This document shows positions 7,565-21,045 of a DNA stretch of 22,115 nt, one piece after another. The translations under genes and the position numbers were made by a program. Positions within the stretch are counted from its first letter, which is position 1. The number at the start of each line of letters is the position of its first letter. This DNA comes from a virus: UHGV virus genome UHGV-0080127; one strand, given 5' to 3'. The notes beneath the pieces were generated by a model. That model was given only the letters and a program-made list of their open reading frames with translations, searched no databases and was not told the DNA's origin.

Positions 7565-8623
7565 TTACGCTCCGGTTTCTGCTGCGGCGGCGCTGAAGTC
7601 GCCAATCTGGATGTTTTCCACCAGTGCGGCGCAGCGGTAGTCCTCAACCACATAGGCTTCGTTAACGGATTCAAAATTTTCAATCCGGTCACGTTTCGGG
7701 TTGTCGATAACTGAACGGCGGCGGGTATCTTCCTGCCAGTAGATGGACAGGTTATCCAGACGGGTGATTAGCAGCGCATTCGGCGGGAAGAACGGCGCAC
7801 GCACGGCCTGCAGGCCCCCCATGCGCTTCTGACTGATGATCATATCGGCAGCCAGTTTTTCACTGTTTTCCTGCTCTTTGTTGACCAGCGGGAAATACTT
7901 GTCAGACAGCAGTTCACGACCGCAAATCACCACCAGATCGTCATCGTCCTGGTAAACCACGTCGATAAGCTCATTGACGGCATCCATCACCACAGCGTCC
8001 AGGTTGGCATATTCGCCACCTTTCCCGACTTTCACCGCACCCGGAGTGGTTTCGCCGCCCGTGGTGGTGCTGCCCATGACGTGATCCGGTGCATCTTCAC
8101 GGATTTTCTGTAACCAGCCTTTGTTCACATCCTGCAGCAGCGGGTTTTCGCTACGGTTGGAGGTTTTCGCACGCTTCACGCCGTTAAAGCCGATCATGAT
8201 GCGGTCCAGTGCCTGACGTTTCACGATGGCGTCACGGATACGCACCTGGAAATCCTGAAACTTCGCCCACAGGTCCAGCTTCGCGTAGGTCAGTACCGTG
8301 TCAAAGTTGGTCTGCTCGCATTTGTATTCAACATCGACCATCAGCGTAGGATCGACAGGTTCACGCTCTTTCGCGGTGGTGTCAGTGGTTCCGGCAATGG
8401 TGCTACCAACACCCAGCCCCAGCAGCTGACCGGACTGCTCAGTCACTGGCGTGACGTTAATCAGCGTCAGGAAAGCGGCGGACTGCTGGATCTGGTCTTC
8501 CAGCGTCTGCTGTACAGACGGCTCCACGGTGAACTTGCTGGACAGTTCTTCAACTGCCACACCGTTCAGACGCGCCAGCTGCTGCAGGTAAGCGTTAAAA
8601 GCAAAGCGGGTATTCTTCTTCAT
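7565..8623 (-). CDS. N: Major capsid protein gpN
   Basis: 352-aa ORF; size and position match P2 gpN. Confidence 0.9.
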   Translation of the reverse strand: MKKNTRFAFNAYLQQLARLNGVAVEELSSKFTVEPSVQQTLEDQIQQSAAFLTLINVTPVTEQSGQLLGLGVGSTIAGTTDTTAKEREPVDPTLMVDVEYKCEQTNFDTVLTYAKLDLWAKFQDFQVRIRDAIVKRQALDRIMIGFNGVKRAKTSNRSENPLLQDVNKGWLQKIREDAPDHVMGSTTTGGETTPGAVKVGKGGEYANLDAVVMDAVNELIDVVYQDDDDLVVICGRELLSDKYFPLVNKEQENSEKLAADMIISQKRMGGLQAVRAPFFPPNALLITRLDNLSIYWQEDTRRRSVIDNPKRDRIENFESVNEAYVVEDYRCAALVENIQIGDFSAAAAETGA

Positions 8624-8639
8624 CAGGTTTTGTGCTCCA

Positions 8640-9473
8640 TCAGCAATTGGTCAGAGTGTCAGCGGGGGCGTTACCGCCTGTTGCACGCTGGCGGTAGTCC
8701 TGGCGGCTGTCTTCATGACTCAGCTTATTCACCAGTTCGTTAAAGGCGGTTTGCTGCTCCTGCAGAGCAGTCTCCAGTTCAGACAGGCGTTCTTCCTGCT
8801 CAGACAGGGATTTTTCTGTGCGTGCGCTCAGGTTCTGCTGCTCAGTGGCGACCAGCTCCACGGCCTTATGTACATCAGAGAACCGGGCGTCATCGGACTG
8901 CTCTTTTTTGGTAAACAGCGCCGTGACACGGGCAAACAGGGACGGTTTGTCATCCTGGATTTCTTCCAGTTCGATCACCGTTTCCTCTGCGGCGGTAAAG
9001 AGATTGGCGGGATTCTGCTTGCGGTTTGCCAGCGGGTTATGAGCTGCGCTGGCGCTGAATGTCAGCATTTCAGTGCCCAGACTGGCAGGATCATCAGTGG
9101 CAGCCAGGCCGACCAGGTAGGCTTTGCCCGTATCAGCGAACTTCGGGCTGACTTCCATAGAGGTGAATAATTTCTGGCCTTTTTTCACCAGTTCCACTAG
9201 GGACTCCGTTGGCTCAACGTCGGCATACAGCGCCATCTTGCCTGCCAGCGGGCCTTCCGTGATTTCTTCAGCAAACAGCGCCGTCACCTTGCCGTAGCGG
9301 TTAAAGGTGCTGTCCGGGAGATAAGACTTGATGTGCTCAAGGTTAATCAGCGCGGTATACACCGCCGGGTTGTAGCTGGCTGCCATCTGTTCCAGCCATT
9401 CACGCTGGATTTCGCGTCCGTCGGTGGTGGCACCTTCCACCCCGATGCGAAAACGCTTTGCTTTCACTGTCAT
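8640..9473 (-). CDS. O: Capsid scaffolding protein gpO
   Basis: 277-aa ORF, ATG at 9473; acidic coiled-coil-rich C-terminal half as in P2 gpO. Confidence 0.9.
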   Translation of the reverse strand: MTVKAKRFRIGVEGATTDGREIQREWLEQMAASYNPAVYTALINLEHIKSYLPDSTFNRYGKVTALFAEEITEGPLAGKMALYADVEPTESLVELVKKGQKLFTSMEVSPKFADTGKAYLVGLAATDDPASLGTEMLTFSASAAHNPLANRKQNPANLFTAAEETVIELEEIQDDKPSLFARVTALFTKKEQSDDARFSDVHKAVELVATEQQNLSARTEKSLSEQEERLSELETALQEQQTAFNELVNKLSHEDSRQDYRQRATGGNAPADTLTNC

Positions 9474-11382: not shown

Positions 11383-12428
11383 TGAGTGAACCCGAAGCCT
11401 TAACCAGCAAAACGCCAACAGAAGCTACGGCACCGAAAAACACAGGCGTAAGTGCCGAGGCTTTCAGCTTTGGCGATCCGATCCCGGTACTGGACCGCCG
11501 CGAGCTGCTGGACTATGTGGAATGCGTACAGATGGACAGATGGTATGAACCGCCGGTCAGTTTTGATGGGCTGGCTCGCACCTATCGCGCCGCCGTACAT
11601 CACAGCTCACCGATTGCAGTGAAATGCAACATTCTAACCAGCACCTACATCCCTCACCCGCTGCTTAGCCAGCAGGCTTTTTCACGTTTTGTGCAGGACT
11701 ATCTGGTATTTGGTAACGCCTACCTGGAGAAACGCACGAACCGCTTCGGTGAAGTTATCGCCCTTGAGCCTGCTCTGGCAAAATACACCCGACGCGGATT
11801 AGATCTGGATACCTACTGGTTTGTGCAATACGGCATGACCACGCAACCGTATCAGTTCACGAAAGGCAGCATTTTTCACCTAATGGAACCGGATATTAAT
11901 CAGGAGATCTACGGCCTGCCCGGTTATCTTTCTGCCATTCCGTCTGCCCTGCTCAACGAGTCCGCCACGCTGTTCCGTCGAAAGTATTACATTAACGGCA
12001 GTCATGCAGGCTTCATTATGTACATGACCGATGCCGCGCAAAACCAGGAGGATGTGAACAACCTCCGCAATGCGATGAAAAGCGCCAAAGGACCAGGTAA
12101 CTTCCGCAATCTGTTTATGTACTCGCCTAACGGCAAAAAGGACGGGCTTCAGATCATCCCGTTGTCAGAAGTCGCGGCGAAGGATGAGTTTCTAAATATC
12201 AAGAACGTGAGCCGGGACGACATGATGGCAGCACACCGAGTGCCGCCGCAGATGATGGGGATTATGCCTAATAATGTAGGGGGGTTTGGGGATGTGGAGA
12301 AAGCCAGCCGGGTATTTGTTCGGAATGAACTGATGCCTTTACAAAAACGCATTGCCGAAATTAATGAATGGTTAGATGAAGAGGTAGTCAAATTTGAATA
12401 TTATGGCTTAGAAAATAATCAGTCATAA
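11382..12428 (+). CDS. Q: Portal protein gpQ
   Basis: ORF-track start 11379 is TTG; ATG at 11382 overlaps the P stop, with GGAG upstream; about 348 aa, P2 gpQ-like. Confidence 0.9.
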   Translation: MSEPEALTSKTPTEATAPKNTGVSAEAFSFGDPIPVLDRRELLDYVECVQMDRWYEPPVSFDGLARTYRAAVHHSSPIAVKCNILTSTYIPHPLLSQQAFSRFVQDYLVFGNAYLEKRTNRFGEVIALEPALAKYTRRGLDLDTYWFVQYGMTTQPYQFTKGSIFHLMEPDINQEIYGLPGYLSAIPSALLNESATLFRRKYYINGSHAGFIMYMTDAAQNQEDVNNLRNAMKSAKGPGNFRNLFMYSPNGKKDGLQIIPLSEVAAKDEFLNIKNVSRDDMMAAHRVPPQMMGIMPNNVGGFGDVEKASRVFVRNELMPLQKRIAEINEWLDEEVVKFEYYGLENNQS

Positions 12429-12435
12429 AAAAGAA

Positions 12436-12466
12436 GTGAACAAGTTGAATTTATCAGCTTGTTCAC
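12436..12466. terminator. Bidirectional hairpin terminator between convergent Q and the 12484-12952 cassette
   Basis: Perfect 9-bp inverted repeat GTGAACAAG...CTTGTTCAC with a 13-nt loop; on the minus strand it is followed by TTCTTTTTT. Confidence 0.55.
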
Positions 12467-12483
12467 TATTATCTGTATTATCT

Positions 12484-12753
12484 CTACTGCATCCGTCCGG
12501 GTAAATCGCTTTCATTGCGTAAACGCCAAGCTAACTGTTCACGATCCCAAACTATATCGTCTTTGCTAGCCTTTCTAAAATTTGCTAGCACAGTACTGCT
12601 TATAGCGTAATTACCATTCTCATTAGTTTTGATGAACTCGTCCCCAAAGTCATTGATTAGAAATTCAACAACCTCGGACTGATACAACACACCATTAGAA
12701 CGAGTGGTATTAACCATCCAGTCAACTATTTTTATCAGAGAATCATTCATCAT
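12484..12753 (-). CDS. Hypothetical protein (about 89 aa), second gene of the cos-proximal cassette
   Basis: Start placed at ATGATG (12753) overlapping the upstream gene's last codons and stop (GATGATGAATGA); AT-rich; no family recognised. Confidence 0.5.
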   Translation of the reverse strand: MMNDSLIKIVDWMVNTTRSNGVLYQSEVVEFLINDFGDEFIKTNENGNYAISSTVLANFRKASKDDIVWDREQLAWRLRNESDLPGRMQ

Positions 12754-12952
12754 CACTCTCAGCTTTTGGAACAAATAAAACTAGAGTATCTTCGTGAAAA
12801 ACTCCGCGCTGGTTCTTAGCACCAATAAACCACGTACAAACTGCCATTGTAGCCGATTGGTAGTGATCAATTACCATGATTGGACCATGTCCTGTTGCAT
12901 GTTTTACTTTCTGGCCCGGTGTATATTTTGCCACTCTCACGTCTCCTTTCAT
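12743..12952 (-). CDS. Small protein resembling the DUF2158/YodC family (69 aa)
   Basis: ATG at 12952; motifs PGQKVKH..GHGPIMVI and AVCTWF resemble my recollection of YodC-like small proteins; no clear Shine-Dalgarno, possibly a short leader. Confidence 0.5.
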   Translation of the reverse strand: MKGDVRVAKYTPGQKVKHATGHGPIMVIDHYQSATMAVCTWFIGAKNQRGVFHEDTLVLFVPKAESDDE

Positions 12953-13013
12953 GTGTAAGTTATCAATTTCAGAATATATCTACATTAATTGCAAGTAAAC
13001 ATGTTTGCGCGCG

Positions 13014-13032
13014 CTCGTATCCCCGCCACGCC
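13014..13032 (-). other. Candidate cos site (cohesive-end sequence)
   Basis: Minus strand reads GGCGTGGCGGGGATACGAG followed by CGCGCGC, closely resembling my recollection of the P2 19-nt cohesive end GGCGAGGCGGGGAAAGCAC followed by TGCGCGC; correct side and orientation relative to Q. Confidence 0.5.
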
Positions 13033-13075
13033 TGCCCGCTTTTTGTAGCGATTTTCATGCAGGTGCATGACATAA

Positions 13076-13101
13076 GCAAAAGCCCACCAGAACTGGCGGG
13101 C
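13076..13101 (-). terminator. Rho-independent terminator downstream of the 260-aa membrane protein gene
   Basis: Minus strand GCCCGCC-agttct-GGTGGGC (7-bp stem with one G-U pair) followed by TTTTGC, about 50 nt after the stop at 13150. Confidence 0.5.
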
Positions 13102-13149
13102 CTCAGCAAAAACGATCCTCAAACGATCATGCATATTCATGCGGCATAG

Positions 13150-13932
13150 TCATGCAGTGACTTTGGTCTGGTCAGGCGTAGAAAAATCTTCGAAAGATTT
13201 ATAAGTTTCAGTATCAAATATTGAAATACTCTCAACCTGATCCATTGGGATTACATGCCTAAAATGATTTAAGTTCAGTGGAGTTGAGTCTGCTGTAATA
13301 TTTTTACTAAGGTAAAGTTCATAGTAACGATGCTGCTCATGGTATCTGAGCGTATCTTTATCACGATAACCACTGATGTATGGTATGAGAGCCAGATGCT
13401 GAGTTTCCTGATGCTCCATCCGAGGAGCAGCTACGTAACCAATGTAAACTTTTCTGGATTTTAGCGTAACAAAGATGAGCTTACCTTCATCTATAGCCTG
13501 AACTAACAGTGACTCAATTCCATCTTGAGCTGCCATCTCGCGATATGCAGATTGACGAATCTCTTCGTTTTCTATTGCTCTTCGCGCATTGTTACCTTGG
13601 TCATAAGCAATAAACACCGCAAGCAGCATAGACAACACAAAGAACAATGGGTAAGACATTATCTTTACGTCTGTGAGCCATGAATAAAAGTCCACATGTA
13701 ACTTAGGCCAAAAATAACCAAAAAAATTGATAACTGAGCTTATAACTAGCAAGGTAACGAATGTAACAGCCATCAGAGTAAACCCCTGAATAGCAAACTT
13801 ACAACCATGCATAGCTACATAAAAATAGGAATTCCAACCATTACTTCTTGCTTGCCTGATGCGGGACTGGTAATGATTTTCGGTGTACCAGAACCCGCAA
13901 ACCAGGACGACCATGATAACTAAGGGTCCCAT
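13150..13932 (-). CDS. Hypothetical multi-pass membrane protein (260 aa) with a roughly 150-aa soluble C-terminal domain
   Basis: ATG at 13932 lies 3 nt after the upstream gene's TGA with AAGGA inside it (translational coupling); three hydrophobic stretches in the first ~110 aa; AT-rich codon usage unlike flanking phage genes. Confidence 0.6.
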   Translation of the reverse strand: MGPLVIMVVLVCGFWYTENHYQSRIRQARSNGWNSYFYVAMHGCKFAIQGFTLMAVTFVTLLVISSVINFFGYFWPKLHVDFYSWLTDVKIMSYPLFFVLSMLLAVFIAYDQGNNARRAIENEEIRQSAYREMAAQDGIESLLVQAIDEGKLIFVTLKSRKVYIGYVAAPRMEHQETQHLALIPYISGYRDKDTLRYHEQHRYYELYLSKNITADSTPLNLNHFRHVIPMDQVESISIFDTETYKSFEDFSTPDQTKVTA

Positions 13933-13935
13933 TCC

Positions 13936-14136
13936 TCATCCTTGTCGTTTTGCAGCCAATTCTTCCATTCTGGCACGCATTGATTCACGTACCTGCTTAT
14001 TGTTCATGTTTAAGGTCGCCGCACCATTAGCATCTGTGATAATTTTACTATTATCAGACTGTTGCACATCCTGACGGATGATATCCTGCATAATCTTACC
14101 TGGTGCAGAGAGAACTTTGCGCAGAAGTTCAGACAT
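13936..14136 (-). CDS. Hypothetical small soluble protein (66 aa), first gene of the two-gene operon
   Basis: ATG at 14136 with a strong AAGGAGG RBS (5-nt spacer); the ORF-track TTG start at 14211 is rejected because a TATAAT box lies inside that extension. Confidence 0.5.
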   Translation of the reverse strand: MSELLRKVLSAPGKIMQDIIRQDVQQSDNSKIITDANGAATLNMNNKQVRESMRARMEELAAKRQG

Positions 14137-14196
14137 ATTTTCCTCCTTATGCCTCAAACGCCACGGATTGTGGTGCATGGAAGCTGTCATCTTATG

Positions 14197-14202
14197 ATTA
14201 TA
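14197..14202 (-). promoter_or_regulatory. Candidate -10 box (TATAAT) of the promoter for the 13150-14136 operon
   Basis: Perfect TATAAT on the minus strand about 60 nt upstream of the 14136 ATG; the -35 region is weak and AT-rich. Confidence 0.35.
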
Positions 14203-14355
14203 GGACAACAAAAATACGAAACTATTCGAAGAGTGCTACGTATTAACCTATTTACATATCACCCTGCAACCAATTTATCCATAACTAACGCCTCGCACGG
14301 CTCGTTGCTCAACCTTGCGAACGGTAAAAACCAGTTTTATCGTCCGCAACGTTCC

Positions 14356-14589
14356 CTAATGTAACCAGCTGTCGTCTTCCCACACCTTCTGCATAATTTT
14401 CATCACTTGCTTCCTTTCTTCGTCCAGTTGCAGTCCGGTCAGTTCCACACCGTTAGAGCTACCTTTGCGGATACGAATTACCGTTTTGGGATACAGGGGG
14501 CGCAGATTGCGGTAAAGCTCGGATTCAAGGGCGTCCAGTGTAGACTGGCTAATCTTCTGCTCTTTATCGATCATTATTTCAATGCGCAT
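14356..14589 (-). CDS. dinI: DinI-family protein (about 77 aa)
   Basis: From the in-frame ATG at 14589 (AGGTGA RBS) the protein reads MRIEIMIDKEQKISQSTLDALESELYRNL...QKVWEDDSWLH, matching the DinI pattern (MRIEVTI...ETWESADDW). Confidence 0.75.
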   Translation of the reverse strand: MRIEIMIDKEQKISQSTLDALESELYRNLRPLYPKTVIRIRKGSSNGVELTGLQLDEERKQVMKIMQKVWEDDSWLH

Positions 14590-14599
14590 AAAAGTCACC

Positions 14600-14788
14600 T
14601 CAGCTGATGACATCCATTGAGCGGTTGTATTCGTGGGTTCTGATTTTTGCCATGAGTTCATCTGTTAGTTCAGAAACCCACTGCAAAGCCAGCCCCTTCT
14701 CTTCATCACTACACTCACTAGCCGCTACAAGCTTAAGAAAAAAATCAATGCGCTGGAGCTTCAAAGACTCCAAAAAATAGTCCTGCAT
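14600..14788 (-). CDS. Hypothetical 62-aa protein, first gene of the SOS operon (possible Tum-like antirepressor segment)
   Basis: ATG at 14788 with AGGAGGAAAG RBS, about 43 bp downstream of a LexA box; function inferred only from synteny with the 186 tum operon. Confidence 0.45.
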   Translation of the reverse strand: MQDYFLESLKLQRIDFFLKLVAASECSDEEKGLALQWVSELTDELMAKIRTHEYNRSMDVIS

Positions 14789-14828
14789 CTTTCCTCCTAT
14801 GACACCAAAGCAATACTGTATACATAAC

Positions 14829-14848
14829 CACTGTTTATATTTACAGTA
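14829..14848. promoter_or_regulatory. LexA (SOS) box CACTGTTTATATTTACAGTA overlapping a promoter for the minus-strand operon
   Basis: CTGT-N8-ACAG with an AT-rich spacer, matching the E. coli LexA consensus TACTGTATATATATACAGTA; minus-strand TTACAT and TATACT-like hexamers overlap it. Confidence 0.7.
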
Positions 14849-14940
14849 TATAATAATCTTACTGATGTAAAACGTTTTTTTACGTTCATCAGCCTGATAT
14901 GCCTGGTATTATTAAGAGCACGAATTGTTAACCCGCGTAA

Positions 14941-17355
14941 TTAATACAGGTTCCGCCACTTATCATCTTCCTTCAGACGCTGGTTCCGATAGAAGATACG
15001 CAGGCCTGCTCCTGACGGAATACTGCCACCGCGAAGGAGTAAATCGACCTCTTTCTCGCTGCCATCAAATCCTCTGGACTTCAGTTCATAGACGAGCTGC
15101 TGTCGTTGATGGTCTGTAATTCGCTGTTTGTAGTCTCTACGCCGTTTCGGTTTCACCAGGCGTAACCTTACAGCCAGTTCCCGGCGCTCTTTTTTGTTCA
15201 TACTGTGCAGAAAATCGTGCAACTCCTTGTCATCCATGCGGGTAATATCCGTTCTGGTGTCCCCATCAGCTGATTTATCTTTCTCCTGTTGGTTCAAATT
15301 TTCAGCAAGGGGACAGTTATTGCCACGAGTCCAAGGGGCGCAAGCGCCCTGGTCGGCTGCCGCCTCCTGAACGTCAACGGCCTTACGAACCATTTTCCAC
15401 TTCACCGCATGAGTGCAGATCTTGCCCTCTGCAATGGGTGACCAGATGCCATAAATACGAATACCGTGATCGCCATAAGCGGTTGGCTCTTCGTTGATTT
15501 CATAAGCGGTTCTGATGAGGTGATATTTACGGGGAACCAGTACGCCACCCTGCTTCATGATATAGGTGGCAAAACAACCAGCATCAGCAGCAGCCAGAAT
15601 GGCATCAAGGCGCGGGTTATCCAGTACCGGCGCACCTGCTTTTTTGTCACCCTGTTGCCTTGCCGCCTGACCAGCCAGCAATCGCAGTTCACGGTAAGCC
15701 TGACGCCCCGGAATGCCAAAGAAGCGGAATTGCTGAACACGATGCAGAGACGCCCAGGCATTAACGTATTCAGCGTTATCACGCAGGGATTTACCCGTTT
15801 CCTTGCTGATCTCCCCAGCCAGACCACGCCCGTCAATGTTCTTACTGATGTATTTCGCGATATAGCTTGTTGGCGTACCTTTGCGCGGGTTTATCAGCTC
15901 AGACTTAAAGCGTGGTCCCGTGTTATTGCCCAGCTCCTCGCGGTCTTCACGGATGGCAAACTTACGCAGTAATGCAGTGATGGCGCGGCGGTCTTTTTTA
16001 CGCATGAAACACATGAGATGCCAGTGCACAGTACCGTCATGATGCGGCTCAGCTACCCGCACGCCATACCAGCGCAACTCGGCTTTATGCATAGCCTTAC
16101 GAAATGCAGCAAACATGCCGACCAGATAATCGCTACTTTGTCTTACCGTCGCGTTTGTCCAGGTCGGGTTTGGTCTGCCGTTATTGAGCGTGGAATGGAA
16201 ACGCGACGGACAGGTGATAGTGTAGAAAACGGCACAGTCACTGCGCATTTCCGCGATAAGCTCCAGACCTTTAACACAGGCCATCATCTCATTGCGGCGA
16301 TGCGCCGGGTTGCTGCTGCTGGCGTTTACCACATCTTCCATATCCAGCGTGTCGCCGTCTTCGTTCACCAGTTCATGAGAACGAAAAAACTCCAGCGACT
16401 TACGGCGCTGCTCACGTTTATGCATCACGGCTTCATAGCTGACATAGGGGGATGCTTTTTTGCTGACCAGGCAGACAGCACGCAACTGCTCTTCCCGCCA
16501 TTCGCAACGCATCTTCCATAATTTCCGATACCACCAGTCGGCACACAACATACGCGCCAGCGAACCCGGGATGAGTTCATAGGGCACTGGTTTGCGGCGG
16601 TTTCTTTTCCGACGAAGTTTCTCAAACGCAGGCGGGATAACATCCAGACGCAGGGTTTCCGCTGCCACCTTTTCCCATGTCTTGCGGATTTCTTCTGGCT
16701 TAACGTCATCGGTGGCATACAAATCACCACAAGCGTCCTCAAGACACATGCTCATATGCGCTGCTACCAGGGTGGACAGGCGTTTCACCTGATCCTGGCT
16801 CATTTCAGGCAGGATCAGCAGACCCTCCAGCCCTTGATGGCTTGCCATAAAACGGAAAGAAACAGATAGCTGACTGTCACGTACACAATCCAGTCGCTCC
16901 AGACATGGCTTAATCGTCTCACGCAAATAGCGGGAATAAGCCTTTGGCCTGCCCAGGCTGCTGAAGTATTCAATACGTTGCATCAGCGGCTTGCTGATAT
17001 GGGAAGGCTGGGCGTTTACGTCCGCCAGAATGACCATGTCCGGATTAAAACGCTGCTGCTCATGCGCCAGCTTTGCCCGGCTAATGAGCTTATCCTGCTC
17101 CATTTCGCGCTGGACAGGATCACGGGATTCATTAAAGAAATAACGCTCCCAGACCTGCTCACTCAGTGCCTCGCGGCGCAGTTGTTCCTGCTCGTTATCG
17201 GCAGCGTACAGAGTGATCAGGTTTGAAAGTGCAGACTCCGGCGCAACTTCCGCCGGGTCCAGATAAGGGTTAATGGCCTTTTTCGAGCCGTTCCATGAAA
17301 ATGCTGCGGCGGCCTCGTTAAAGCCGCTGCAATTGTTCATATCGTCATGACTCAT
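14941..17355 (-). CDS. A: Replication initiation endonuclease gpA (rolling-circle type)
   Basis: About 804 aa from the ATG at 17355 (ORF-track start 17361 is GTG), which overlaps the dam stop (ATGA); contains an HUH-like motif ([13 protein letters not shown]); P2 gpA-like. Confidence 0.9.
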
Positions 17356-20135: not shown

Positions 20136-20705
20136 ATGAATTTGGAGAAAGGCGGACGAGGCGCTATAGAGCGCATGGTAGAAGCTTATGGATTCAAGAC
20201 TCGACAGGCGTTGTGCGATCATTTAGGAATCTCTAAAAGTACACTCGCCACACGCTACATGCGTGACTCATTCCCAGCAGAATGGGTAATCCAGTGCGCC
20301 CTTGAAACAGGCAGCTCGCTTAATTGGCTCACAACCGGGCATGGTTCAAAGCAAACTTCAGGTAATACAAATACTATGGAAGTTGCTAAATATGTATTAT
20401 CTGATGGGGCCTTGTGTGAAGACGGTTTTTATATTTTCGATAGAGAATTTCTACCGTCGGCATTCAAGAATCTTTTTGTAATCACAGATAATAATTCTGA
20501 ATTTATTTGTGATAAGGAATTTGATGATATACGTGATGGTAAATGGGTAATAAGTATTGATGGCGAAATAACGATCCGTGACATTACTCGTTTACCCGGT
20601 GGAAGAATCTTCGTCGAGGGTGGAAACAGAGCCTTCGAGTGCAAGATAGAAGATGTTGAAATAATTGGGAAAATTATAAGTTTAACAATTAGGTACGTTA
20701 GGTAA
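20136..20705 (+). CDS. cI: CI immunity repressor (186 type)
   Basis: ATG at 20136 with GGAG RBS (ORF-track start 20130 is GTG); conserved block CALETGSSLNWLTTGHG resembles 186 CI (CALETGANLQWLLTGEG), as does the C-terminal ...ISIRDITRLPGG. Confidence 0.8.
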   Translation: MNLEKGGRGAIERMVEAYGFKTRQALCDHLGISKSTLATRYMRDSFPAEWVIQCALETGSSLNWLTTGHGSKQTSGNTNTMEVAKYVLSDGALCEDGFYIFDREFLPSAFKNLFVITDNNSEFICDKEFDDIRDGKWVISIDGEITIRDITRLPGGRIFVEGGNRAFECKIEDVEIIGKIISLTIRYVR

Positions 20706-20720
20706 TACCGGGAGGAAACT

Positions 20721-20912
20721 ATGCTTGGTAAGGTATTTTTTGTGGTTTTATCATGCTCTTTGTTATTAAACCCACTAACTACCTATGCTAAAAATTATCC
20801 TTGTTCTGGGAAAAAGGGAGGTGTCTCTCACTGTACCTCCGATGGAAAGTTCGTTTGCAATGATGGAACTATTAGTAAATCAAAAAAAATCTGTACTAAA
20901 AACTCGCGATAA
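20721..20912 (+). CDS. Small secreted cysteine-rich lysine-rich peptide (63-aa precursor)
   Basis: ATG at 20721 with strong GGGAGGAAACT RBS; predicted signal peptide [23 protein letters not shown], then a roughly 40-aa basic region with four Cys; co-directional with cI and int. Confidence 0.55.
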
Positions 20913-21045
20913 ATTTTGCTTTTATATCTGCGCCTAATATAACAATGAGCCGCAGGCTAACCGCAAAAGTCATATACTCACATAGCAAAAAATAGCTAAC
21001 TTCATTATGGCTTCAGTGAGATGTATGGTCGCAGGATTTCATACA

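Follow-up and report, generated by a model that had tools for sequence, protein, structure and literature searches.

The 22,115-nt virus genome UHGV-0080127 (the window; coordinates without a locus number are positions in it) is a prophage of P2/186-like (Peduoviridae) type, with near-identical counterparts in Escherichia coli 13TMH22, in avian pathogenic E. coli (APEC) O78 strains and in CFT073. Between its DinI gene and cos lies a mobile two-gene accessory cassette ('moron'), whose two open reading frames (ORFs), of 66 and 260 amino acids, are present as an earlier note on this DNA had described them and lie on the minus strand. The cassette and its signals are the following.

14202-14197, minus strand: TATAAT, a -10-like box within the insert
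14148-14142, minus strand: ribosome-binding site AAGGAGG, 5 nt ahead of the ATG of the small gene
14136 (ATG) to 13938-13936 (stop), minus strand: small gene, 66 amino acids, matching phrog_22451
13932 (ATG) to 13152-13150 (stop), minus strand: large gene, 260 amino acids, matching phrog_3630
~13104-13071, minus strand: intrinsic-terminator-like hairpin and U-tract, 3′ of the large gene, in the backbone flanking cos
13157-14284, no strand given: cargo insert of 1,128 bp, delimited by blastn of the flanks against vB_EcoM-813R9

The limits of the insert follow from a pairwise comparison with vB_EcoM-813R9, to which the DinI-side flank (14285-14950) is 94.8% identical and the cos-side flank (13005-13156) 88.8% identical. 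Because the counterparts of these two flanks are separated by only 8 nt in vB_EcoM-813R9, the insert is taken to be 13157-14284. The extent previously proposed, 13076-14245, was close to this, but it included the backbone terminator and missed 40 bp of the insert upstream of the promoter. The GC content of the insert is 40.2%, in comparison with 52.5% in gpA, 50.3% in the portal gene and 57.0% in the terminase gene, which bears out the earlier remark that the cassette is more AT-rich than the flanking genes (50-57%); among related loci, the GC content is low relative to the flanks in 60 of 70.

The cassette lies between gpA and the portal gene near cos, in a site whose occupancy varies among related prophages, and thus belongs to the gpA-gpQ hotspot. 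The sharp insert and the empty site in vB_EcoM-813R9 agree with the earlier description of an accessory cassette at the position of P2 orf91-tin-old, a known hotspot. The cos-proximal flank is found in ~536 complete E. coli records, of which 16 carry the whole cassette. A sensitive blastn search detected it in 29 of 5,426 complete E. coli genomes, as 16 near-identical copies and 13 diverged alleles, and no deposited phage genome carried it at high identity. Bases 1-126 of NZ_CP019257.1, a 36,172-bp record of E. coli 13TMH22, are 100% identical to 13100-13225 of the window, and a chromosomal copy of the cassette is present in the same strain. This record may be a separately assembled contig of the phage genome in its excised or packaged form, in which case the prophage would be active.

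The two genes meet at GGA-TGA-GGA-ATG, with the ATG of the large gene 3 nt past the stop codon of the small gene, so that both this junction and the AAGGAGG ribosome-binding site are as the earlier note gave them. The same close arrangement is found throughout the family. In almost all of 80 loci fetched out of 201 matching stretches in a one-genome-per-species collection, an ORF of ~60-80 amino acids ends -1 to +9 nt from the start of the large gene. Because the gap between stop and start is so short, here and across the family, the two genes are almost certainly co-translated.

The TATAAT box has neither an acceptable -35 element nor a TGn extension, and a consensus scan did not call a promoter there. 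It is nevertheless kept upstream of the small gene in seven loci of different contexts, as TATAAT, TATAGT, TACAAT or TAAAAT after TG.TGTCC, and the AGGAG of the Shine-Dalgarno sequence is invariant among aligned related loci. Because both elements are kept across contexts, the expression signals evidently travel with the pair. A short element at 14158-14176 (minus strand), between the -10 box and the ribosome-binding site, is a stem-loop or inverted repeat. Relatives have a stronger version of it, such as AAACGCCGCTG-C-CAGCGGCGTTT of Pantoea loci; four of its six pairs show compensatory changes, with a consensus energy of just -3.4 kcal/mol. The element could serve as an operator or as a hairpin at the 5′ end of the mRNA.

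The terminator, in contrast to what had been supposed, is not the cassette's own. The hairpin at ~13104-13071 is GC-rich and is followed by UUUUGCUU, and a 96-nt fold has an energy of -40.2 kcal/mol (z = -4.2); it was checked by manual inspection and by folding, and the consensus terminator scan did not call it. Its DNA is common to ~520 other E. coli P2-like prophages and to vB_EcoM-813R9, and the same hairpin is present in locus L098. The terminator is therefore assigned to the backbone, because it is located in DNA shared with relatives that have no cassette. The description 'self-contained' thus holds for the -10 box, the ribosome-binding site and both genes, all of which lie within the insert, but not for transcription termination. 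No RNA family was detected by an Rfam scan of 12400-15000, and no convincing terminator lies between the DinI gene and the cassette.

The large protein carries hydrophobic segments at residues ~1-16, 45-72 and 91-110, both in the window protein and in the family average, and these are followed by a soluble C-terminal domain, as had been recognized earlier. Because lysine and arginine are more abundant in the 17-44 loop and in the region after the third segment than in the 73-92 loop, the distribution of charge suggests an N-out/C-in topology. In an AlphaFold2 model based on a 44-sequence alignment (mean predicted local distance difference test score, pLDDT, 85.9), helices extend through residue 149, and strands are formed by residues 152-157, 161-167, 179-190, 197-202, 226-229 and 233-239. 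The predicted layout therefore comprises three N-terminal transmembrane helices, a helical linker at ~110-150 and a C-terminal barrel at ~138-250. The barrel has the arrangement characteristic of the Sm-like (LSm/Hfq/WYL) fold, namely a helix at the N-terminal end and, after it, an antiparallel sheet of five strands with a strong bend. Consistent with this, all 50 of the 50 chains returned by a Foldseek search of the PDB were Sm or LSm proteins, at E-values of ~0.01 and target-normalised TM-scores of 0.39-0.70. The large protein is thus predicted by the model to be an inner-membrane protein with a cytoplasmic Sm-like (LSm/Hfq/WYL-type) beta-barrel.

Conservation within the family is concentrated in the barrel. 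The invariant residues K158-S159-R160, Y163, G165, S187-G188-Y189-R190, Y203 and Y207 supply basic and aromatic side chains to the barrel loops, and P184, S237 and F239 are likewise invariant, whereas in the transmembrane segments hydrophobicity alone is conserved. Sequence searches of the PDB with three family profiles gave no significant match. The top match below threshold, obtained with the broad profile, was YaeO/Rof, an Sm-like Rho inhibitor (6jie_B, E 0.42, profile A2 positions 141-177); it spans the TLKSRKVYIG strands and agrees with the fold assignment. A search of the viral structures in BFVD returned just weak, uninformative matches of low TM-score to uncharacterised proteins.

The small protein is soluble, with an isoelectric point of 9.8, and is predicted with moderate confidence (shallow-alignment model, pLDDT 75) to fold as helix-helix-beta-hairpin-helix. 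At the core of its family, a beta-hairpin with the motif (K/R)-h-h-h-D-x-x-G-x-h-x-h-N precedes the C-terminal helix; its charge is not conserved across the family. Neither protein has a signal-peptide-like feature beyond the first transmembrane segment of the large one. A hidden Markov model of the small protein detected a member immediately ahead of the large gene in 96 of 104 loci, and the upstream ORF is present even where the large protein is only ~35% identical. Altogether the pair is kept in ~100 loci, down to ~20% identity. An exception is a subclade that comprises five species of Kalamiella and Erwinia (L022, L029, L052, L057 and L059, at ~8001-8783) and in which no small partner gene lies upstream and the large gene retains all of its motifs. 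In L022 (Kalamiella) this orphan large gene stands between an MFS (major facilitator superfamily) transporter gene and a short multi-pass hydrophobic ORF, which we take to be crcB-like. In both genes nonsynonymous divergence (dN) is 0.06-0.44 with synonymous divergence (dS) at or near saturation; the sole pair for which dN/dS was computable gave 0.049, dS being saturated in all other comparisons. These comparisons indicate that both genes are under purifying selection, and the small protein co-evolves with the large protein.

Neither protein belongs to a characterised family, in agreement with the earlier note: there is no match to either in Pfam or NCBIfam, PADLOC is blank (see below), and the PHROG families that they match (phrog_3630, 8e-90, for the large protein; phrog_22451, 2.6e-43, for the small protein) are both annotated 'unknown function'. 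The family of the large protein is nonetheless large. A word-indexed search found 158 clusters at 90% identity, and a profile search of an exhaustive library found 2,676 clusters at 50% identity with E≤1e-3, of which 1,540 had E≤1e-10; the 201 stretches mentioned above are the matches of the large protein in the one-genome-per-species collection.

The surroundings of the cassette in the window are as follows.

Portal end at 12428, plus strand: terminase and portal genes
12484-12774, minus strand: DUF6953 ORF (Pfam, 5.9e-24)
12743-12952, minus strand: DUF2158-like ORF, 69 amino acids
13021..13040: core of cos, GGCGTGGCGGGGA on the minus strand, taken as cos on the basis of the P2/186 cohesive ends; a landmark between the cassette slot and the portal-side slot
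14356-14661, minus strand: DinI-family gene
14600-14788, minus strand: phrog_698 gene, 62 amino acids
14941-17361, minus strand: gpA

The portal-side slot, from the portal gene to cos (12429-13004), is a second, independent AT-rich cargo site, with a GC content of 38%, and is filled by the two overlapping minus-strand DUF6953 and DUF2158-like ORFs. In CFT073 and vB_EcoM-813R9 the same slot instead holds a gene for a 383-amino-acid TIGR02391/Hypoth_Ymh protein, with a weak resemblance to PD-Lambda-3_B/HEPN in PADLOC. A further AT-rich region (GC 0.36-0.37) is found at 20400-21000, past the early-gene block.

Relatives of the pair occupy at least six accessory slots of temperate phages, as well as plasmids and chromosomes. 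In the list below, the P2-type slot is the gpA-cos or gpA-portal interval.

P2-type slot: Erwinia mediterraneensis, a Pantoea metagenome-assembled genome and Dryocola
P2-type slot: Pectobacterium atrosepticum, at 31% identity only
P2-type slot: Citrobacter
P2-type slot: E. coli, a 70% allele, followed by an AAA_13 ATPase gene (L106, 8069-10405)
P2-type slot: Klebsiella phage ST15-OXA48phi14.1, followed by a bSEFIR protein gene (L099, 4059-5492)
P2-type slot: Salmonella phages SEN4 and SEN5
P2-type slot: an Enterobacter 35-kb P2-like element, adjoining a type IV restriction/HEC-06 gene (L105, 5052-6794)
After gpD, at the gpD-att end: Aeromonas P2-like prophages
Lysogeny region: Pseudoalteromonas phage C5a
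int-attP: Cronobacter phage phiES15
Between the Q-like region and the holin genes: an Enterobacter lambdoid prophage
nin region, beside hok: an E. coli lambdoid prophage
Plasmids: 32 records, 25 of them from Salmonella; the one inspected is an IncC plasmid with the pair beside a RecD-like ATPase gene
Phage-free chromosome: Pantoea, a 63% allele beside the pqq operon
Phage-free chromosome: Erwinia, between rnb and an oxidoreductase gene
Phage-free chromosomal loci of Pantoea and Erwinia: clade B, at ~35% identity, at fixed offsets from genes for a PHO4-type (pitA-type) phosphate transporter, uspB, an HI0933-like (yhiN-type) flavoprotein, an aldo-keto reductase, a short-chain dehydrogenase/reductase and QueH

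Genes of defence type often adjoin the pair. The bSEFIR protein (6.9e-103), the HEC-06/type IV restriction gene and the RecD-like ATPase were recognized with PADLOC, and the AAA_13 ATPase with Pfam; the HEC-06 neighbour in L105 is a frameshifted DUF262/DUF1524 type IV restriction enzyme.

As far as sequence can establish it, anatomy and distribution define a mobile, apparently self-expressed two-protein membrane module. The function ranked first for this module, possible rather than probable, is membrane-level phage exclusion or abortive infection; behind it, in descending order, come another function for the host or lysogen, toxin-antitoxin or addiction activity and a role intrinsic to the phage. 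Exclusion or abortive infection is suggested by the position in a validated hotspot together with capture into many unrelated slots, and by the recognised defence genes among the neighbours. It is also favoured because the architecture, in which a membrane anchor carries a small barrel of a sensing-type fold on the cytoplasmic side, resembles that of an effector, and because the insert is discrete, low in GC, and rare and patchy in E. coli. The confident structure model, the -10 box that travels with the pair and the purifying selection on both genes argue in the same direction.

If the pair acts in this manner, it would be expressed in the lysogen, where other phages would be excluded, or their infections aborted, through its action at the inner membrane. 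Sm-like folds typically form rings and bind nucleic acids or nucleotides. In the large protein, the Sm-like domain could serve as a cytoplasmic module for sensing and oligomerisation, and ligand-dependent assembly might rearrange the bundles of three transmembrane helices, with the result that the membrane is permeabilised or genome entry is blocked. The small protein would then be a stoichiometric partner that gates or tunes the large protein, and not an essential antidote. Judged by analogy, the barrel fold would be suited to such a task, as it serves nucleic-acid and nucleotide sensing in other proteins, including the defence regulators DriD and BrxR. A more specific form of this proposal, which is unlikely as a whole, is a new kind of stand-alone anti-phage device, a membrane-tethered Sm-like ring. 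Its cytoplasmic barrel would directly recognise phage nucleic acid, whether incoming or replicating, or a nucleotide signal, and the ring would then open or clog a pore of 18-21 transmembrane helices, with the co-translated small protein as gate; divergent copies would have been domesticated as chromosomal genes in Erwiniaceae.

Published work describes the gpA-gpQ/cos interval as the main, experimentally validated defence hotspot of P2-like phages and reports that about half of P2-like prophages have no recognisable defence system. Several points nevertheless weigh against an exclusion or abortive-infection function. Many genes of the P2 hotspot are not defence genes, for example partition systems and the cytolethal distending toxin (CDT). 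PADLOC-DB v2.0.0 contains no family that matches either protein at E≤1, nor any for the homologs on IncC plasmids, in a search that covered databases up to 2023, and the searched literature holds no experimental test of the pair. Furthermore, clade B keeps its offsets fixed across 13-18 Pantoea and Erwinia species and is vertically inherited and stably resident among housekeeping genes, which points to a resident cellular role and is unusual for defence cargo with its fast turnover. Because of this chromosomal clade, the pair may have a cellular membrane function that phages have borrowed.

The strongest competitor, although doubtful, is accordingly a module of host physiology or lysogenic conversion, that is, a cellular function at the membrane that was picked up by phages and plasmids and benefits the lysogen in a way other than phage resistance, such as a factor tethered to the membrane that binds RNA or nucleotides, or a device related to the envelope or to stress. 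In addition to the position of clade B beside housekeeping genes, this explanation is favoured by the size of the family (2,676 clusters and 201 stretches), by the phage-free copies at the rnb-oxidoreductase and pqq sites, and by the fact that ~75 of the 80 kept loci have no P2-type or lambdoid hallmark gene within 8 kb that is detectable with the panels used. However, the clade of the window (≥60% identity) is mostly found in accessory slots of prophages, the cassette is rare and patchy in E. coli, and the GC content falls below that of the flanks in most loci. Moreover, five Pantoea genomes carry two divergent pairs (L003/L026, L017/L031, L012/L079, L004/L055 and L039/L063), one from the clade of the window (64-78% identity) and one from the ~35% chromosomal clade, which is more like the behaviour of accessory systems than of housekeeping genes.

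A toxin-antitoxin or addiction module, in which a membrane toxin and a small antitoxin encoded upstream stabilise the prophage or plasmid, is improbable. The gene order, with the small gene first, the larger gene second and tight coupling between them, would suit such a module, as would the occurrence on mobile genetic elements including IncC plasmids, the location beside hok in a lambdoid prophage, and the weak inverted repeat between the -10 box and the ribosome-binding site as a possible operator. The orphan large genes, however, make a strict toxin-antitoxin relationship unlikely: in five species the large gene is intact and the small one is missing, a state that is incompatible with a constitutive toxin. 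In addition, no toxin-antitoxin family in Pfam or NCBIfam matches the pair, and the small protein varies in charge across the family. The pair therefore does not qualify as a type II toxin-antitoxin system, given the orphan large genes in the five species and the lack of toxin-antitoxin domains.

More improbable still is that the pair serves the life cycle of the phage itself, for example in lysis timing, packaging at cos or replication control. The pair is co-directional with the gpA-DinI early operon, from which no convincing terminator separates it, and one relative lies immediately upstream of lambdoid holin genes. Such a role is nevertheless unlikely because the site is empty in close relatives, the cassette is missing from most P2-like prophages and copies are present in phage-free chromosomal loci; the pair also takes up unrelated positions in different phages. 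That the genes are chance ORFs or a decaying, functionless remnant, for which the lack of annotation alone would speak, is refuted by conservation of the pair in ~100 loci down to ~20% identity, by low dN with dS at or near saturation and by the confident structure model.

The copy of the cassette in CFT073 has already been catalogued, in Table S5A of Rousset et al. (2022), solely as 'hypothetical + hypothetical', and hence the locus is not new; outside one supplementary table, the CFT073 accessions of the pair are not mentioned in the searched literature. The tags c0942-c0947, which were guessed for the pair, are absent from a CFT073 nitric-oxide transcriptome paper that lists neighbouring prophage genes. 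The novelty lies in the delimitation of the cassette, in the recognition of the small and large genes as a conserved pair, in the architecture of three transmembrane helices and an Sm-like domain, and in how broad and mobile the family is. This is a first anatomical description of a family of ~2,700 clusters at 50% identity that has no Pfam model and whose members are nearly always preceded by a cognate protein of ~65 amino acids. The cargo of the gpA-gpQ hotspot has repeatedly proved to consist of new immune systems, and the cassette is small and apparently self-expressed and is carried by the model uropathogen CFT073, so that it can easily be tested. If the pair is defensive, it would add to the known repertoire a membrane effector that works without a signal-generating enzyme and has a sensor fold of nucleic-acid-binding type. 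If it is not, it would still represent an uncharacterised membrane-tethered Sm-like family that is conserved in Erwiniaceae and has repeatedly been mobilised by phages and plasmids.

Among known systems, the closest in position is orf91-tin-old of P2, which occupies the same slot from gpA to cos and is likewise non-essential, AT-rich cargo; the P2 cargo at this site excludes T-even phages and lambda. The tin and old genes run from a promoter near cos towards A, whereas the pair of the window is transcribed towards cos. The alternative raised earlier, that the cassette is a divergent orf91/tin pair, was not upheld: tblastn of both proteins against 50,697 phage records, P2 included, gave no match in P2, and hhalign of the family profiles with Tin (NP_046797) and Orf91 (NP_046796) gave a probability of 0.07% each.

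Several structural likenesses concern one part of the large protein or its general plan. Sm/LSm/Hfq and WYL domains share the fold of the barrel, without significant sequence similarity, and the domain of the window protein differs from them in being fused to an anchor of three transmembrane helices and in having an additional helix and loop between strands. A few distant members of the family have matches below threshold to DUF6338, a family of uncharacterised integral membrane proteins (best 25.1 bits, E 1.5e-5, against a gathering score of 26.5). This likeness is confined to the N-terminal region of three transmembrane helices, which corresponds to the first half of the Pfam model, and does not extend to the Sm-like domain; the window protein itself has no match, and no functional literature on DUF6338 was found. 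The core of MscS consists of a pore-lining transmembrane helix followed by an Sm-like beta-domain and assembles as a heptamer. Its general plan thus resembles that of three transmembrane helices and an Sm-like barrel, but the large protein has no match to Pfam MS_channel, and MscS is not its closest structural match.

A homolog from Aeromonas caviae (P0295; loci L092-L094) is named 'SMODS-associating 2TM beta-strand rich effector domain-containing protein' in UniRef. Membership of the S_2TMBeta/Cap15 family is not supported, as PF18153 matches neither the window protein (E≤1) nor ten relatives including P0295 (E≤10), and the name given to the Aeromonas homolog is unsupported by the fold search as well. 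Neither in the window nor in any annotated locus does a CD-NTase/SMODS, an mCpol cyclase or another signal-generating enzyme adjoin the pair. The resemblance to the two-transmembrane-helix (2TM)-beta effectors Cap15 and OptE (S_2TMBeta, PF18153), which belong to CBASS (cyclic-oligonucleotide-based anti-phage signalling systems) and Panoptes, is one of design. These effectors likewise join an N-terminal transmembrane anchor to a small cytoplasmic beta-barrel, which in their case binds a nucleotide signal and governs disruption of the membrane. The window protein has three transmembrane helices in place of their two, and a conserved small partner takes the place of the cyclase. If defensive, the pair would thus be a variant of the theme of a membrane effector with a cytoplasmic sensor barrel, similar to Cap15 and OptE in logic but not in family.

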